From: Candidatus Hodarchaeota archaeon
GTDB taxonomy: Archaea; Asgardarchaeota; Heimdallarchaeia; Hodarchaeales; Hodarchaeaceae
Length of the DNA stretch: 52,123 nucleotides
Assembly (NCBI GenBank): GCA_016840035.1
Contig: JAEOTC010000113.1
Span: 1 to 52,123 of the forward strand
Direction: 5' to 3'
Each line of letters starts with the position of its first letter. Within the stretch, counting starts at the first letter, position 1. Below the pieces are notes generated by a model, which searched no databases, was not told where the DNA came from, and saw nothing but the letters and a program-made list of their open reading frames with translations. The position numbers and the translations under genes were made by a program. This document shows positions 42,675 to 50,495 of the stretch, in pieces.

Positions 42675-45071
42675 TTATGTTCGGATCATTTTTGGGGTGT
42701 TGTCTAGGAAAATTTCCTTTGTTAGGACATGATAATGTCTTATTTTTTCGGTTTGTCTGATAATATCGGGTATAGGGGTGTTTTTAATTGATTCTAAAAC
42801 TGAATGGATCTTTTCTTCAGTTTTCATAATACTAAATTGGTTTTGATTTATTATCTCCTTAATATCATTGGTTGGAGAAAGAAGAGTCTCAATACTTTGA
42901 GTAATTTCGATTTTTTGGAGTAAGGAATCCAATAGTTCATGAAAATCTACCTTTACACTAGTAAATAATTCTGGAAGATATAATTGGTAAACCATATGCT
43001 CTGCTACTCTTTGAAGAAATTTCAATTCTATTTTGTAAGATAATCCAGCATTTAATGATTGTAGCTGAGTTAAAAACGAAATGTATTGTCCTAATATTTT
43101 CCATTGCTCTTCATATAACTGGGGATATTTTATTGGAATCATTTTTGTATAATATTTATGTAAATAGACAGTAAGGTGAGAATAATTCAAGATGTACCGT
43201 TTTAATAAATAATTGATTAAAGAAGAATTCAAAATAATCATTAAAGGAAAAAAATCGTAGTTGGGATTGGTTACTTCCATTATAGAAACATTCGTTCCAG
43301 GTATGAACCCTTTTGGTTTATAAGCAACTCGGAATTCATTACCAATAGCCGTACAGATAAGTTTTGGACGAATTAAATATTCTTTAAATCGTTCATTTGT
43401 GTGGTTAGCCTTGGACCAATGGAAAAAGTCAGGTTTCAGAGCATAGCGTGACACACATTTCCCTGAATGAAGAAAGGGGATTGAATAATCGGTTGATGGT
43501 GAAAATTTGCGTTTTAGGTCCTTTTTAACAATTCTATGATCAATACCGTAATCACCCATAATTTGAGAAAATTCACAGTTCTGGACGATTTGTTGCCATT
43601 TTTCATCATAATATATCATATATCGCTTGTACTGTTTGAAAACTTGCTTATTAATTGGGGAAATTGGTTTCAAACCGTTTCTAGGTTTAATAGAGATAAA
43701 TTGATTATTTTTCTGGCTCTTTGTTAGGATTAGTGAACACATTTCTAAAGTAACATCTTCAAAGGCCGCCGATTCATCATGAATCTCATCTATATTCATA
43801 TTTTCGAGAATAAACTCTCTTATCCCTTCAAACTCTTCTACTCTAAGAATAGAAAACGGAAGAATAAATGCCATACGCCCGTCTGGTTTCAAGAGAGAGA
43901 TAGCCCGTTCAATAAATGCACCTGCTGAGTTCAAACTCATCTTCTTAGCAGCTCTTCCTTTACAAGAACTGTAGGATAATTTAATAATTTTCTTTTCATC
44001 TGGAAGTAAAACAGAACGGCCGTAGGGAGGATTGCCTAGGCAAATATCAAAACCCCCCTCTGGGATTATTTCAGGATAATTAGAGGCCCAATGAAAAAAT
44101 TCAACTACTGAGGGGTCTAATTTATCAAGAAACTTCTTGTTTGAAGCTTTTTCTGGTATAGAGGATAAATATTGAAGATATTTCATATCGAGGTTTTGTG
44201 TGAGTTCAAAATCATAATCCTCACTTATAAATCCAAAAAGAGAGTTCCCTCTCTGGATATTTGAAAAAACTTGAGAACCATTACCTATTTGGAAATCAGG
44301 TTCTTTATCCAAAAGCCAGAACAATAATCGTAATTTAGTTACCAGAGTACCTAGATCCGATTTGTCTACTCCAAAAATAGAGTTCTGAATAATTGTGGAT
44401 ACTCTTATTTCCGTTTTATTCTTATTTTTCTGCAGATTTTGAAAAATTCTTTCTGCTGCATAAACTAAAAATGAACCAGTGCCACAGCTAGGGTCAAGTA
44501 CCCTAGCTGAAGTGTTATCTGTTGTTAAAAGTCTGTCAGTTAGTTCTCGAATAATCTTCCATGGCGAATAGTAGACTCCCTTTACCTTACGATTTGAAAC
44601 TTTAGGTGTTAAGGAAAAATCCTGTTCAAACTCGTTGATAACCATTTCTGCCAATATTGATAGAAATTCAGGTGATATCCTCTCATCCCTATCCCAAGGT
44701 TGTTGAAATTTTTCCACAAGAGTAAAAGTATATTGGCTTATTTGCTTAATTAGAGTCTGCCAATAATCATTAGAAATGTATTTGATTAGTCTTATCTCAT
44801 CAATGGATAAAAGGATCATATGGGGAAATGTATTCTCCGTTTCTGAAATTTTTTTTTCTTTAGTAAACTCATTCGATGATCTAATCCATTGTTTAAACAC
44901 AGCTTCTATATTCTTATTTTCAGGATAAGATCTAAAATAAAATAGAGCAAGAAATTTAAGGTTTGCACTCAAAGCCACGTTGAAAATTGTTGTATCAGAC
45001 CATTCTTGACTCTGTCCTCCTTGAAGAAGTAATACATAAAGGTCTTTTAGTTTTTGAGATAATTGTATCAA
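42675..45071 (-). CDS. Gamma-class N6-adenine DNA methyltransferase with TaqI-like C-terminal TRD, no recognisable nuclease domain
   Basis: KGVYYSP, VLDPSCGTGSFL, GNSL, FHW, GFDICLGNPPYG, AFEDV, PKLI, ILNSSL. Confidence 0.88.
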   Translation of the reverse strand: MIQLSQKLKDLYVLLLQGGQSQEWSDTTIFNVALSANLKFLALFYFRSYPENKNIEAVFKQWIRSSNEFTKEKKISETENTFPHMILLSIDEIRLIKYISNDYWQTLIKQISQYTFTLVEKFQQPWDRDERISPEFLSILAEMVINEFEQDFSLTPKVSNRKVKGVYYSPWKIIRELTDRLLTTDNTSARVLDPSCGTGSFLVYAAERIFQNLQKNKNKTEIRVSTIIQNSIFGVDKSDLGTLVTKLRLLFWLLDKEPDFQIGNGSQVFSNIQRGNSLFGFISEDYDFELTQNLDMKYLQYLSSIPEKASNKKFLDKLDPSVVEFFHWASNYPEIIPEGGFDICLGNPPYGRSVLLPDEKKIIKLSYSSCKGRAAKKMSLNSAGAFIERAISLLKPDGRMAFILPFSILRVEEFEGIREFILENMNIDEIHDESAAFEDVTLEMCSLILTKSQKNNQFISIKPRNGLKPISPINKQVFKQYKRYMIYYDEKWQQIVQNCEFSQIMGDYGIDHRIVKKDLKRKFSPSTDYSIPFLHSGKCVSRYALKPDFFHWSKANHTNERFKEYLIRPKLICTAIGNEFRVAYKPKGFIPGTNVSIMEVTNPNYDFFPLMIILNSSLINYLLKRYILNYSHLTVYLHKYYTKMIPIKYPQLYEEQWKILGQYISFLTQLQSLNAGLSYKIELKFLQRVAEHMVYQLYLPELFTSVKVDFHELLDSLLQKIEITQSIETLLSPTNDIKEIINQNQFSIMKTEEKIHSVLESIKNTPIPDIIRQTEKIRHYHVLTKEIFLDNTPKMIRT

Positions 45072-45165: not shown

Positions 45166-47130
45166 ATGGAATTATCCCCAAACCGATTTCCAACAGGAAT
45201 TCTTGAGGTCTGTCATATTTTTCGCGACTCAGGCTTCCAAGCTTTTGTCGTTGGAGGGTCCATTCGTGATCTTCTTCGGGGAGAAAATCTACCAAATGAT
45301 TGGGATATTGCCACTGATGCATCTCCACCTAAAGTTATAGAGCTATTTAGTCAATTTCGGGTAATTCCGACAGGCATACAACACGGGACTGTTACCCTTC
45401 TTTTTAAAAATCTTTCAATCGAGATTACTACTTTTCGTGTCGAAGGAGAATATAAAGATGGACGACGCCCATCAGAAGTTCATTTTGTAAAAGAGATAGA
45501 GGAGGATTTAGCTCGACGTGATCTCACAATAAATGCGATTGCCTATGATCCTATTAATCAATCTTTAACTGATCCTTTCAAGGGTGTTACCGATCTTCAG
45601 AATAATATCTTACGTTTAGTAGGTGATGCTGATACCCGTTTGAAAGAGGATGGACTTCGATTAATTAGAATATTCAGATTTGTTTCTCAATTGGGCTTTT
45701 CTGTTGATCAAAAGTCCCTTGATGCGGTTCCTAGGCAAGTAACTGTCTTCAGACAGGTTGCGAAAGAGCGTATTGAGGTTGAATTCCATAAATTAATGAG
45801 TGGACCTTTTTGGCAACAGGCCATCAAAATGATGATTCCAAATAATCTGCTAGCAAACTATATACCTGAACTTTTCGAAAAATATATGCTTGCTTTAATG
45901 GAATCGGTCCACAATGATCGCTTAGGAATTACTATTTCTATTATTGAGAGTTTTTCTCCTGAATCATCAATCAATCTCCGTTATGCTGCTCTATTTCATC
46001 AATTATCAGCTACATCTCATCCAAAGGATACTTTCCCTGAAATAGATAAACAATTCTTGGCCAAGATCTTAAGAGGGTTAAAATTTCCAAATAAGAGGAT
46101 AGACAGCATTCTACATCTTCTTACTGTATATAAGATCCCTTTACCATACTCTATGAATGATGAGGAGGAGAGGAGGAATTATTCTCTCAGAAAATTCCTT
46201 TATAAGATCAATCCACATTTTCTTGATGATTATCTATCATTTTACAAGGCAATGTGGAAAGAGCTAGATCGTTCAGGGTTACCTAGTGTGTTAATAGAGG
46301 ATATAGAGAGAAGAAGGGAATCTCAACCTCCTATATATCTAAAAGACTTAAAAATTGATGGAAACGAAGTTGTATCCCATTTAAACATAAAAAAATCAAT
46401 CCCTGCTCAACGGGAATTTATTGGGATATGTTTAGACCTATTACGAGAACAAGTCGAGGTGGATCTGTCTAATAATACGAAATATAAGCTTTATCAAATT
46501 TTAGAAAACATTAATCAGGTTAAAAACCTGTGTACCGCACTAAAAGTCCCCAGGGTCAGTATAATTTCTACTGATCACATTCGAAAACTCTATCGAGGGA
46601 ATGAACCTGAATATATTTCTTGGGAAAACAGTCACACTTATCGTCTCTCAATCTGGTTAGTATCATGTCTTCTTCGACGTAACAAATCGAATATTGTCAT
46701 TTTTGATGGTACAAATCTGAATTCTCCCTCACATCCGTATCATAGGGAAAAACTAGCAACAAAATTCAAAAGATACAATCCGATCTTCATCAATACTTTT
46801 TCATCAGAGGATGACCTTAAGAAGAATTTAGAGGCTAGAGAGCATGAAAAACCATCAATTAGAAAAAGTGATGCAGATATTACAATCTATGAACGGTATG
46901 AATCGATAATTAACCGTTACCCGAAGTCATTTTATGCACCAGAAAATGTTAAAATTATTGAATTATCCACCAGATCAACTGAATACGAAAAAAGGCTTAA
47001 AGATCTCAGTAAAAATCTTAAGGAGAGTAATCATCGTCTGATTATTATGAGTGGGAATGTCCTTACTGGGAAAACATTCACTGCAAGAAAGATCCAGCAG
47101 ATATTAAGCACACATTCTTTGAAAGAATGA
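45166..47130 (+). CDS. cca: Class II CCA tRNA nucleotidyltransferase fused to a circularly permuted P-loop (AAA_33/PNK-like) kinase
   Basis: VGGSIRD..DWDIAT, EITTFRVE, EDLARRDLTINA, EDGLR, KERI. C-terminal STDHIRK, VIFDGTN, SDAD and terminal LIIMSGNVLTGKT. Confidence 0.88.
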   Translation: MELSPNRFPTGILEVCHIFRDSGFQAFVVGGSIRDLLRGENLPNDWDIATDASPPKVIELFSQFRVIPTGIQHGTVTLLFKNLSIEITTFRVEGEYKDGRRPSEVHFVKEIEEDLARRDLTINAIAYDPINQSLTDPFKGVTDLQNNILRLVGDADTRLKEDGLRLIRIFRFVSQLGFSVDQKSLDAVPRQVTVFRQVAKERIEVEFHKLMSGPFWQQAIKMMIPNNLLANYIPELFEKYMLALMESVHNDRLGITISIIESFSPESSINLRYAALFHQLSATSHPKDTFPEIDKQFLAKILRGLKFPNKRIDSILHLLTVYKIPLPYSMNDEEERRNYSLRKFLYKINPHFLDDYLSFYKAMWKELDRSGLPSVLIEDIERRRESQPPIYLKDLKIDGNEVVSHLNIKKSIPAQREFIGICLDLLREQVEVDLSNNTKYKLYQILENINQVKNLCTALKVPRVSIISTDHIRKLYRGNEPEYISWENSHTYRLSIWLVSCLLRRNKSNIVIFDGTNLNSPSHPYHREKLATKFKRYNPIFINTFSSEDDLKKNLEAREHEKPSIRKSDADITIYERYESIINRYPKSFYAPENVKIIELSTRSTEYEKRLKDLSKNLKESNHRLIIMSGNVLTGKTFTARKIQQILSTHSLKE

Positions 47131-47154
47131 TAATCATCGTTTGGGGAACCACCT

Positions 47155-48879
47155 GTGGTAATCACTCAACGTGAAAAGGGGCAATATTTCACTCCTGATA
47201 ATGTTGTACGTGCGATTATAACCAGTATCAGTGTATATCTAAAAGAGAAGGAATCTAATTCCACGTTACGTGTGTTAGACCCATCAGTTGGAGAAGGAAT
47301 TTTCTGCAATCTTCTTATACAGTTGTTGAGTAAGAAGTTTTCCTTTATTTCGATAGATGCCCTTGATATCGACTCTGAAGCTCTGTCAAAGGCACAATCT
47401 TTAGTGAATCGGACATTGGATGATAAAAATCATACTTCTACATTTCATCAAAAAAATTTCTTAACAGAATTTGATATAGAGAATAAAGAAGAAAAATATG
47501 ATCTAATCATATCTAATCCTCCCCATAATGCAAAATATCCTCCTTGGGAATGGGACAACATACTGAAAACGGTTTCTTATGAAATTCCTCAAAAAATCCC
47601 TAAAGAATCAGCACTCTATTTCTTTATTAAATCACTCGACTTATTGAAAGATGGTGGAATTCTTTCTTTTATTTTACCCAAGCCGTTCATTTACTCAAAT
47701 AAATGGAAAGTATTTCGAGAAATATGTACTAAACGGGTTCGTCTACTAGAGGTATATGATATAGGTAATCAGTTCTCAGGTCAACTTCAAGAGCAGGTTG
47801 TAATTTCTATTCAAAATTTAACCCCTACTAATGATTTTAAAACGGGGATTTGGGATAAGATTAAAGAGGAATTTTCTTCTAGATCAAGCGTTAAGTCTGA
47901 AAATGCTATTCGATTTGATAATTTTTTAGTTGGTATCACCCCAATAGAACAGAATCTAATGGAAAAGCTTATTAAAAACAATCAGGTTATTGAATGGGAA
48001 GCTTTTCGTGGATTAAACAGTAAATACCGTAATAAAACCTCTTCCATCCCATTAGTTGAGAAAGCTACAGTTACTCATGGTTTTTTACTTCCTGAACGGA
48101 ATTATGTAGATAAAGACGTTCCAAACAGACAATTAGAAAGATTAGCACGCCCAAAAATAATTGCTCAACGAATTCTAACTTATACAACAACACCAAAGTT
48201 CCGATTTAATGTACCTATCTTGGTCGATAGTATAGGGAATCTCATCACACATGAGACGATTATCAATATATTCCCTCCTAATTCAACCATTCAGGATCTT
48301 TACTCATACGGAGCAATCCTTCAGTCTAAATTCACCGTTTGGTGGTTAAAACACGCTATTTATACAAAACAATTTGTCACTAGTAAAGATTTTGATAGAC
48401 CCTATTTAAATAAGGTTTTAATACCTTCTATAGACGGTTCTGTTAATCATACGTTTCGTAATGGACTAAATTCCCTTTTACATGAAGGGAATCTTCATTC
48501 AATAATTTCTCTTGCCAATAAAGAGTCGAAAGTAGATCAATTTTTTGCTCTAGGTAGAATCTTTAAGTATTATCTAATGAAAGGAGAAGAGATTCGATTG
48601 TTGCTTGATCAGATCCTTCAATTATCCTCTCAACGTACCAATATTTCACAGCATAACTTAATGAAAAGGATTGATCGAGATTTTCGTACTAGAGATGATG
48701 TGAGTTATATCTGGTTAAATACTAAATATGGGCTTACGTTTAGTGATTCCATTGTATCTGAGCTTAAGACAAAATATCTTGACCTCGCGAACATTAGAAA
48801 CGAGATCGATATACTTGTGATTATGTTATATGGATTAACAGAGGAAGAGGAAAGAATTATCGTTGAGGGAGACCAATGA
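47155..48879 (+). CDS. Gamma-class N6-adenine DNA methyltransferase, TaqI-like, with variant motif IV (NPPH)
   Basis: KGQYFTP, VLDPSVGEGIF, DLIISNPPH, LKDGGILSFILP, PKIIAQRI. Confidence 0.85.
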   Translation: MVITQREKGQYFTPDNVVRAIITSISVYLKEKESNSTLRVLDPSVGEGIFCNLLIQLLSKKFSFISIDALDIDSEALSKAQSLVNRTLDDKNHTSTFHQKNFLTEFDIENKEEKYDLIISNPPHNAKYPPWEWDNILKTVSYEIPQKIPKESALYFFIKSLDLLKDGGILSFILPKPFIYSNKWKVFREICTKRVRLLEVYDIGNQFSGQLQEQVVISIQNLTPTNDFKTGIWDKIKEEFSSRSSVKSENAIRFDNFLVGITPIEQNLMEKLIKNNQVIEWEAFRGLNSKYRNKTSSIPLVEKATVTHGFLLPERNYVDKDVPNRQLERLARPKIIAQRILTYTTTPKFRFNVPILVDSIGNLITHETIINIFPPNSTIQDLYSYGAILQSKFTVWWLKHAIYTKQFVTSKDFDRPYLNKVLIPSIDGSVNHTFRNGLNSLLHEGNLHSIISLANKESKVDQFFALGRIFKYYLMKGEEIRLLLDQILQLSSQRTNISQHNLMKRIDRDFRTRDDVSYIWLNTKYGLTFSDSIVSELKTKYLDLANIRNEIDILVIMLYGLTEEEERIIVEGDQ

Positions 48880-50495
48880 AGACGAGTAAGATTAAAGAAC
48901 CGTTAGGTGCGATTCCAACACCGAAATCTATAGTAAAGATAATGGTTGATCTTTCTTATGAATTTATCACGCATTTTTTACAGGAAAGTACAACTTCCAA
49001 CAGTATGTACGTACTTGATAACTCAGTAGGGGATGGCCGATTCCTATTTGGAATTGTCGAGAAATGGAACACTATTACTGAAATTAATCGCCGAGGATGT
49101 AAATTAGTTTTACATGGTTTAGATATTAATAAGGATTCAATAACTAAATGTAAAACAGATAGGAACAATTTTTCAGATATAAAGGGCATTGAAATATCAT
49201 TTAAAACTGGAAACGCATTAATTGGATATGTTAAACCAGTAAAGATAAACGAAAAGGAAATTGTCGATGAAAATTTGACTGAATCTTATTTTAACAAAAT
49301 AGATCAGAGTTTGCAAAATCTTAATCTAAAGAAATCTGTGTTTCATTGGTTCTATGAGTGGTCAAAGCCGAACTCCAAGGATGGATATCATATTTGTATA
49401 GGAAATCCTCCCTTTGGAATTAAATTCTCTTCTGAAGAGAAAAATATCTTCAAACGAATGTATCAAGGTGTTGATCCAGAAGTTGAAAGCTACCTATTAT
49501 TCGTTGAACGTTCGATAAGTCTTTTACGAGAAGGAGGATTAATAATCTTTCTTATTCCGAATAATTTTACAACCAACTATCGTTATGAAGAATTTCGAAA
49601 ATTTCTTCTTCAAAACCTCAGTATCAAAAGAATCATTATGTTGGGAAGCAATGTGTTTCCTACTGTTTCAGTTGAAACTTGTATTCTTATTGGTTATAAG
49701 GAACCTCATGCAAAGAAAAGTTCTACTAATTTTATAGAATTTAGTAATTACTCACTAGAGAAAGGCTTCTCTTCTATTCAAATTAGTGACCAAAATTTTA
49801 TTCTGAATCAGGAGTTCAAGTATATTGTTCCAGATATGTCGACTGAAATTTCTGGTATTCTCAAAACTATCGAAGAAAATTCTATACCATTAGCAGATAT
49901 TGCCTCTATCTCTCGTGGGATTGAACTAGGATTTCAATCAGAATTGACAAGTGATGAACCGACTTCTACACAATCGGTGCCCTTGATAGCTGGAAGAAAC
50001 ATCGAAAAATTTCTGATCAAAGGAAAATATCGGTATATTGATTATGATTCAAATCAAAAATCCATTTTTAAAAATAAATCGTTGTATAAACAACCTAAAA
50101 TCTTACTTCGAAGAATTGGTCATGAGTTAATTGCAGCATTGGATCCTAATGAACTTTTTTGTGTTTGTGATGTGTATATTATCACACTTAAACCACAATG
50201 GTCTCATGTTCCACTAAAACATCTAGAAATAATTCTAAATTCCCCCCTTCTTACTTTTTACCTAAATCATAAATTTAAAACAGTTAAAAAGATTTTTCCT
50301 AAAATTCCGATTAGTTATTTAAAACAACTTCCAATTAAATTACCATTTTCACCAAAAGAAGAGAGCTTAATTCAAAATATTAGGAAGGAACTTAAATTCT
50401 TAGAGAAGGAGTCATTTAACTCTTTGAACGAACTAATATTTCGAGTGTATAGAATTACTAAATCTCAAAAAACGATTGTAGAGTCAGCTCAGTAG
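48876..50495 (+). CDS. Gamma-class N6-adenine DNA methyltransferase with TaqI-like C-terminal TRD
   Basis: LGAIPTP, VLDNSVGDGRF, GNAL, FHW, IGNPPFG, VFPTVSVETCI, PKILLRRIG, LNSPL; ATGA overlap with the upstream gene. Confidence 0.87.
   Translation: MKTSKIKEPLGAIPTPKSIVKIMVDLSYEFITHFLQESTTSNSMYVLDNSVGDGRFLFGIVEKWNTITEINRRGCKLVLHGLDINKDSITKCKTDRNNFSDIKGIEISFKTGNALIGYVKPVKINEKEIVDENLTESYFNKIDQSLQNLNLKKSVFHWFYEWSKPNSKDGYHICIGNPPFGIKFSSEEKNIFKRMYQGVDPEVESYLLFVERSISLLREGGLIIFLIPNNFTTNYRYEEFRKFLLQNLSIKRIIMLGSNVFPTVSVETCILIGYKEPHAKKSSTNFIEFSNYSLEKGFSSIQISDQNFILNQEFKYIVPDMSTEISGILKTIEENSIPLADIASISRGIELGFQSELTSDEPTSTQSVPLIAGRNIEKFLIKGKYRYIDYDSNQKSIFKNKSLYKQPKILLRRIGHELIAALDPNELFCVCDVYIITLKPQWSHVPLKHLEIILNSPLLTFYLNHKFKTVKKIFPKIPISYLKQLPIKLPFSPKEESLIQNIRKELKFLEKESFNSLNELIFRVYRITKSQKTIVESAQ

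Follow-up and report, generated by a model that had tools for sequence, protein, structure and literature searches.

Results

The gene and the order of its kinase elements

The DNA under study, referred to below as the window, is a stretch of 52,123 nucleotides (nt; ~35% G+C) on contig JAEOTC010000113.1 of Candidatus Hodarchaeota archaeon (assembly GCA_016840035.1). One of its genes (coding part 45166-47127) encodes a protein of 654 amino acids (aa). Its first ~440 residues are a tRNA CCA-adding enzyme of the bacterial type (class II), and the remaining ~190-215 residues hold a compact P-loop kinase domain of ~190 aa in circularly permuted order: the unit of strand 1, Walker A loop and helix 1, which opens a canonical kinase, closes this one. 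The parts of the protein and the neighbouring genes are collected in Table 1.

Read from its amino end, the domain begins with strand 2 and the motif STDHIRK, in which D470 and R473 (46573-46584) form the DxxR element. It continues through the Walker B-like VIFDGTN (V511-N517, 46696-46716; modelled strand 510-514) to the lid. The stretch LIIMSGNVLTGKT closes the domain with strand 1, Walker A and helix 1; its Walker A motif (G630-T637) was read directly from the sequence at 47053-47076, and T637 stands 17 residues before the protein end. The canonical order, in which strand 1, Walker A and helix 1 are followed by the DxxR element, the Walker B-like strand and the lid, returns only when the last ~31 aa are placed in front. 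A preliminary description of this gene had given the positions of STDHIRK, VIFDGTN and GNVLTGKT exactly, as translation and direct reading show. Its claim of a permuted order, with Walker A last and 17 residues from the stop, is borne out by our reading and by the out-of-order profile matches described below.

Table 1. Features of the CCA-kinase gene, its product and the flanking genes in the window
Feature	Position	Strand	Support or remark
Whole open reading frame	45166..47130	+	654 aa: class II CCA-adding enzyme, then C-terminal permuted kinase domain
PolyA_pol head domain, aa 26-150; GGSIRD, DWD, RRD	45241..45615	+	Pfam PF01743, E 1.6e-35
PolyA_pol_RNAbd neck, aa 177-237; EDGLR template motif just upstream, aa 161-165	45694..45876	+	Pfam PF12627, E 1.3e-8
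Body/tail of CCA enzyme, aa 238-439	45877..46482	+	NCBIfam NF009814 spans aa 15-413; weak tRNA_NucTran2_2 match
Linker helix, aa 441-457, before strand 2	46486..46536	+	Model helix 2-18
Strand 2 (VSIIS; model strand aa 464-468) and STDHIRK; D470 putative general base, R473/K474 of the DxxR element	46555..46587	+	
Helix 2, aa 485-505; family-specific invariants E487, H490, T491, Y492, W497	46618..46680	+	
Strand 3, Walker B-like IVIFDGTN (D514, T516, N517), then invariant P521 and HPxHR (H523, R527)	46693..46746	+	
Strand 4, PIFINT, aa 539-544	46780..46797	+	AlphaFold2 model
Lid region: N554, R558, E561, then K-S-D-A-D (S568, A570 invariant)	46825..46878	+	
Strand 5, aa 596-600	46951..46965	+	AlphaFold2 model
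Helix aa 607-620, the canonical kinase's C-terminal helix; 4-residue loop to strand 1	46984..47025	+	
Unit that is N-terminal in canonical kinases: LIIMSG (strand 1, aa 625-630), GNVLTGKT (Walker A), helix 1 (636-653)	47038..47124	+	
Stop codon and 24-nt spacer to methyltransferase B gene (start 47155)	47128..47154	+	T run absent
Eco57I/TaqI-type methyltransferase gene, divergent from the CCA-kinase gene	42675-45071	-	
Two more Eco57I/TaqI-type methyltransferase genes, 24 nt downstream	47155-48879; 48876-50495		

We found 31 homologues of 650-680 aa with a common layout, which their sources name Hodarchaeales, Heimdallarchaeota or Promethearchaeota; all 31 are annotated merely as CCA-adding enzymes. 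Twenty-six of them were aligned, their identity to the query within the domain being 40-83%. Positions invariant in all 26 include, from both halves of the domain, T469, D470, R473, K474, F513, D514, T516, N517, H523, R527, N554, R558, S568, A570, G630, G635 and K636. Position 637 is T or S throughout, and every one of the 26 proteins ends 13-23 residues past GK[TS]. The linker helix is conserved as well, with I445/L446 nearly invariant and C456 invariant.

Profile evidence for a circular permutation

Profile searches match the two halves of the domain separately and out of order. Residues 463-564 match positions 24-124 of the 143-position Pfam AAA_33 profile (E 6.6e-5, 23.7 bits), a range that covers the kinase body but not the Walker A strand. 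Residues 616-652 match positions 6-42 of the 6PF2K profile, where strand 1, Walker A and helix 1 are located. At E<=0.01, AAA_33 matches are present in 8 of the 26 homologues. A search of the family profile against PDB sequences returned 6PF2K matches only, and these were weak; in the human PFKFB3 kinase domain, residues 5-44 match the tail and residues 95-143 the strand-3 region, the reverse of the query order.

The effect of re-ordering was measured against a reference profile hidden Markov model of 29 canonical AAA_33 kinases from Asgard genomes, most of which are about as large as Kti12 or PSTK and likewise have the D..R, D.TN and N..R elements. In their native order the domains give two non-collinear matches, the body to profile positions 32-177 and the tail to positions 4-29. 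When the last ~31 aa are moved to the front, all 26 homologues give a single match that starts at profile position 3-5, extends in many cases to ~170 and gains ~13 bits; for the 654-aa protein one match covers profile positions 4-168, and the score rises from 26.7 to 39.5 bits. Profile-profile comparison with hhalign behaves likewise. The native order yields a match of 96.9% probability (E 1.8e-10, 143 columns) and a separate tail match of 87.9% (E 3.2e-6), and the re-ordered domain yields one alignment of 170 columns (98.9%, E 3.1e-17) that passes the artificial joint nearly without gaps. A scan of circular shifts over the 26 homologues in steps of 6 residues places the mean best single-domain score at its maximum, 37.8 bits against 22.1 for the native order, at offset 162. 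This offset is a cut just before strand 1, and the score collapses once the cut enters the Walker A unit.

Predicted structure

The AlphaFold2 model, built on the 26-sequence alignment, is a single confident domain with a predicted local distance difference test score (pLDDT) of 86 and a predicted template modelling score (pTM) of 0.85; in the tail the pLDDT is 84-92. It contains five strands, and after the last of them come a loop and a helix. Along the chain the elements are a helix, strand 464-468, helices, strand 510-514, a helix, strand 539-544, the helices and lid, strand 596-600, a helix, strand 625-630, the loop and helix 636-653. Each of these elements has one counterpart in a P-loop kinase if the latter is read in a circle that starts at strand 2 and closes with helix 1.

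The model was compared with 48,161 PDB chains by VIA-align. Most of the 50 matches listed are of the P-loop kinase type, and the ten best are so without exception (Z 6.6-8.1, 135-148 residues aligned). PSTK comes first (3a4l; Z 8.1, 135 residues aligned, 3.0 Å), and further matches include Kti12 (6qp0, Z 7.6), a putative kinase (2rhm, 7.2), 6PF2K (1bif, 7.2), Clostridium thermocellum Pnkp (4gp6, 7.1) and T4 Pnk (6.5). Gluconate kinase, chloramphenicol phosphotransferase and nucleoside monophosphate (NMP) kinases score 5.8-6.9. In the top rows model residues ~19-184 pair with chain residues that start at 23-69, just past the P-loop helix of the target; a sequential aligner must proceed in this way on a permuted chain. 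A shape search of the ESM Atlas matched an AAA_33 cluster with a template modelling (TM) score of 0.69 by the match, and the best AAA_33 row covers residues 23-183 only. No high-TM cluster with the same permuted topology was found in the Atlas, which holds large clusters only, so that this result is no evidence of uniqueness. The nearest neighbours of the domain in a protein language model are AAA_33, Zeta_toxin and KTI12 clusters.

The CCA-adding enzyme part

The head domain exceeds the curated Pfam threshold by a wide margin (PF01743, 122.7 bits against a cut-off of 23), and the class II catalytic motifs GGSIRD, DWD, RRD and EDGLR are complete, both in the translation and in an alignment with the short paralogue described below. 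With 266.4 bits, this divergent archaeal member falls narrowly short of the cut-off of 290 set for the NCBIfam model of CCA tRNA nucleotidyltransferases (NF009814), and the NCBIfam model of the E. coli-type enzyme matches the head region only (E 1e-24, far under its cut-off). We read the 654-aa protein as a lineage-specific paralogue of the bacterial-type tRNA CCA-adding enzyme, and CCA addition itself is predicted.

A second, short class II paralogue of ~385-410 aa occurs in every genome of the genus that has the long form. In the present assembly it lies on another contig (C193, L002:823-1968, minus strand) and is a 382-aa protein, 30% identical, without the kinase domain and with its motifs GGAVRD, DYD, RRD and EDGLR intact. 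We did not find an archaeal class I CCA enzyme in this assembly, which is 87% complete. A 2026 preprint reported that Hodarchaeales possess class II enzymes only, often in two copies, in place of the class I enzyme, and that one Hodarchaeum class II enzyme, of a paralogue not named, adds CCA in vitro (bioRxiv 10.64898/2026.05.29.728689). The two class II copies per genome observed here agree with that report. Its Hodarchaeales paralogues A and B are of this gene family and lineage. They are described without the permuted kinase domain: the C-terminal regions were trimmed as non-conserved, and the words 'kinase', 'P-loop' and 'Walker' are absent (bioRxiv 10.64898/2026.05.29.728689).

Distribution

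The domain was found in only one GTDB genus of Heimdallarchaeia (Hodarchaeales by the names in the sources), always fused to the CCA enzyme. It is carried by 16 of the 21 other genomes of that genus (GTDB species representatives), among which two of three assemblies listed as single-contig have it. Outside the genus, a search of 61 genomes of the class at E<=1e-5 gave nothing save one weak body-only match, presumably a canonical kinase. A phmmer search of 1.84 billion cluster representatives gave eight matches. Seven are full-length or partial relatives (99-659 aa), and the eighth is weak and consists of short stretches of a 2613-aa protein. Neither a stand-alone form nor a close relative in canonical order was found in these representatives or in the GTDB genomes of the class.

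Two further observations concern copies of the gene. The same assembly contains a second, partial CCA-kinase gene on a 2.3-kb contig (C190, L038:1-850), which is 87% identical to protein P0008 and belongs to a different subgroup from the 654-aa protein; it is either from a co-binned relative (the contamination estimate is 4%) or a true second copy. In one single-contig genome the kinase-domain match of the orthologue (G109:C1:2618822-2619466) contains one in-frame TAA, which may be a sequencing error or mark a pseudogene.

Gene neighbourhood

The CCA-kinase gene is flanked by genes for Eco57I/TaqI-type methyltransferases (Table 1). No run of T follows its stop codon, so read-through transcription into the next gene is plausible. 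Orthologues with a kinase domain no more than 41-48% identical to this one have the same surroundings. In distant orthologues (L050, L051 and L052) an Eco57I/TaqI_C-type N6-adenine methyltransferase of ~800-860 aa lies upstream on the opposite strand, and one or two more, of ~540-600 aa, come next on the downstream side, where the genes either overlap or are 17-35 nt apart. Flanking genes of unrelated kinds (PALP, an F420 oxidoreductase and phosphoglucomutase) are likewise syntenic; conserved order alone is therefore no proof of a functional link with the methyltransferases.

Discussion

Our results confirm that the domain is a genuine circular permutant of a P-loop kinase, conserved, confined to one lineage and fused to a paralogue of the class II CCA-adding enzyme, and document its element order, conservation, fold class and distribution. 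This was the central claim of the preliminary description, that of a natural circular permutant of an AAA_33/PNK-type kinase, and four lines of evidence support it: the out-of-order profile matches, the re-ordering with its scan of cuts, the predicted structure and the conservation among homologues. The steps which that description had proposed, as far as they were carried out, agree in their outcome. Moving the tail to the front merges two non-collinear profile matches into one of full length, structure prediction with structural comparison gives a confident single domain whose body matches P-loop kinases, and a survey of homologues finds the fusion common to all. It had also anticipated that profile searches would tend to miss the domain, and databases indeed annotate only PF01743 and PF12627 on the homologues.

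Both the topology and the architecture are new. Natural circular permutants of the P-loop NTPase domain that are still active exist among GTPases (YjeQ/RsgA, YlqF/RbgA, YqeH and Lsg1). These belong to the TRAFAC class, carry an NKxD motif and are cut in the order G4-G5-G1-G2-G3, whereas the permuted kinase differs in both class and cut. A conserved [NT]KxD is absent from the alignment of 26 homologues, the NKSN of the 654-aa protein lying in poorly conserved columns, and no GTPase is among the VIA-align matches listed. Our literature search returned no relevant account of a permuted P-loop kinase or of a CCA-kinase fusion.

The nearest points of comparison with respect to motifs are the AAA_33 kinase domains of T4 Pnk and C. 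thermocellum Pnkp. They share with the permuted domain GxxxxGK[ST], an Arg three residues after the Asp that follows strand 2, the (D)TN of strand 3 and the lid Arg, and they too are linked to tRNA metabolism; in the structural alignments (4gp6, Z 7.1; 1ly1/1ltq, Z 6.5) they are 16-19% identical to it. In both, however, Walker A comes first and the fusion partner is a phosphatase or a ligase, whereas here Walker A comes last, the partner is a CCA-adding enzyme and the additional residues HTY, W and HPxHR are invariant. D470, R473 and R558 align with the D..R and N..R of canonical AAA_33 kinases, and we take them to be the counterparts of D35, R38 and R126 of T4 Pnk. PSTK and Kti12, the best structural matches, have the same D..R, D.TN and N..R pattern and both act on tRNA, but they are of canonical order with a C-terminal tRNA-binding domain of their own, whereas the tRNA-binding partner of the 654-aa protein is N-terminal. 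With regard to the fusion, the E. coli multifunctional CCA-adding/repair enzyme likewise joins CCA addition and a second RNA-end activity in one polypeptide. That second activity is a metal-dependent phosphatase/phosphodiesterase (HD domain), in contrast to the P-loop kinase domain that follows the tail here.

How the chain folds and acts can be suggested from the order of its elements. It would enter the domain at strand 2, pass through the DxxR element, the Walker B-like DGTN strand and the lid to strand 5, and the unit of strand 1, Walker A loop and helix 1, made last, would fold back into the domain. K636 and T637 would then serve for ATP and Mg, D470 would act as general base and R473 and R558 would contact phosphates; D514, T516 and N517 likewise belong to the residues that such kinases use. 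The full catalytic set of the PNK/PSTK-type kinases is invariant, which argues that the domain is most likely an active ATP-dependent phosphotransferase and not a decayed relic. The 26 domains are also uniformly basic, with isoelectric points (pI) of 9.25-9.86 (mean 9.6) and a net charge of about +10, compared with a mean pI of 8.3 for the canonical Asgard AAA_33 proteins. This charge and the tether to a tRNA-binding enzyme favour a kinase directed at RNA or tRNA, and its substrate would most likely be a hydroxyl on tRNA or another RNA. A 5'-OH is our leading guess, prompted by the PNK-like motifs. On balance we think it probable that the protein is a class II CCA paralogue with a circularly permuted, likely active RNA/tRNA-directed kinase domain.

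Several observations weigh against this reading. With the domain in native order, PF13671 (AAA_33) scores 23.7-25.1 bits, below its gathering cut-off of 27. A Foldseek search of the PDB gave no match at E<=0.001 and its top rows were unrelated barrels, as expected because a permuted chain was aligned sequentially. The evidence that strand 1 is the central strand of the sheet, with strands 3 and 4 on either side, is indirect: DSSP assigns strand to segment 625-630, which is accordingly hydrogen-bonded into the sheet of the model, and the body of the domain superposes on kinases in which strand 1 separates strands 3 and 4, from which we infer the central position. The matches to PSTK, Kti12, 6PF2K, PNK and small-molecule kinases lie within one Z unit and give no pointer to the substrate. 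From class II structures, a domain that follows the CCA tail would be expected close to the elbow of the tRNA and, in cis, at a distance from the acceptor end. Finally, the genome encodes RtcB, an enzyme which needs a 5'-OH and joins 5'-OH ends, and no ATP-dependent RNA ligase (PF09414) was found in the 87%-complete assembly. A route in which a kinase is followed by a ligase, the heal-and-seal of T4, is therefore without a visible partner, and gene content speaks mildly against it. We also considered whether the domain might replace a Clp1-type RNA kinase and rejected the idea, as the pattern is anecdotal. Clp1 was found neither in the present assembly nor in any of 21 genomes of the genus and is absent from most other families of the class too; true matches occur only in the sister family, in its only two genomes, which lack both the CCA-kinase and class II CCA enzymes.

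Among the alternatives, the domain may be a Kti12-like tRNA-stimulated ATPase or tRNA-handling module, or a PSTK-like kinase that acts on something attached to the tRNA 3' end, and not a 5'-OH polynucleotide kinase. PSTK and Kti12 are the two best structural matches (Z 8.1 and 7.6), the canonical Asgard relatives in the reference profile are largely of their size with the same D..R, D.TN and N..R elements, and KTI12 is among the language-model neighbours. Their Z scores are tied, however, with those of PNK, 6PF2K and others, T4 Pnk is as identical or more so in the structural alignments (17-19%), and a protein that ends 17 aa past Walker A is missing the C-terminal tRNA-binding domain. We regard this alternative as rather doubtful. 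It is also conceivable that the domain is a kinase of small molecules or nucleotides (a nucleoside, a nucleotide or a sugar phosphate), whose fusion perhaps allows substrates to be supplied or sensed. By sequence, the Walker A unit matches 6PF2K best, and gluconate kinase, chloramphenicol phosphotransferase and NMP kinases are among the structural matches at Z 5.8-6.9. The domain is nonetheless uniformly very basic and, to judge from the eight matches in 1.84 billion representatives, never stands alone, while RNA/tRNA-directed members share its pattern of DxxR, TN and lid Arg, all of which makes such a substrate improbable.

The remaining alternatives concern the domain itself. Permuted termini favour domain swapping, dimers are frequent among class II CCA enzymes and T4 Pnk forms oligomers, so that the P-loop tail of one molecule might complete the body of a second. 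Such a dimer seems quite improbable to us, given a monomer model that is confident throughout, the tail included, and a four-residue loop between the connecting helix (aa 607-620) and strand 1 that is constant in length. That there is no single domain at all, only a decayed kinase remnant beside an unrelated Walker A fragment, or an artefact of assembly or gene calling, is hardly credible: each half alone does fall under the curated Pfam thresholds, but layout and protein end are equal in the 26 aligned homologues, 16 of 21 other genomes of the genus carry the domain, the catalytic residues are invariant in both halves, and the model and the re-ordered profile match each show a single domain.

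The permutation likely arose through tandem duplication of a kinase domain, which would have been followed by loss of both outer ends. As a speculation, the linker helix, which stands at the place of helix 1 before strand 2, may be a relic of the lost first copy; it corresponds to helix 1 in low-confidence columns only, where the hhalign alignment extends to template position 14. An intermediate with two kinases in tandem was not found. Nor could a specific canonical ancestor be named: with the permuted profile the 29 canonical AAA_33 proteins from Asgard genomes score 5-34 bits, and no group among them is clearly nearest. Canonical AAA_33 kinases of ~190 aa from another family of Heimdallarchaeia carry GLPGTGKST followed by ISTDSVRK, much like STDHIRK; overall they are not clearly the nearest relatives of the permuted domain.

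A wider conjecture is that the long paralogue is a bifunctional tRNA-processing or rescue enzyme. It would rebuild the 3' CCA and phosphorylate a hydroxyl on the same or a partner tRNA (a 5'-OH end, an anticodon-loop break or an internal 2'-OH near the elbow), and its gene would form one operon with those of two or three Eco57I/TaqI-type adenine methyltransferases. We think this picture unlikely as a whole; if true, the archaea closest to eukaryotes would possess a tRNA-centred modification or conflict system not known before, to which the enzyme would belong.

Natural circular permutants are familiar from the P-loop GTPases, and none was found described for the P-loop kinase class in the literature searched. 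The present domain indicates that the unit of strand 1, Walker A and helix 1 can come from the far end of the chain and yet stay under strict selection. It also exposes a blind spot of annotation: the homologues are labelled as CCA-adding enzymes, and the study of these enzymes drops the region as non-conserved. The domain further marks one member of the Hodarchaeales pair of class II CCA paralogues as more than a housekeeping enzyme; if its kinase acts on tRNA, this paralogue would represent a new pairing of RNA end-processing activities in one polypeptide.

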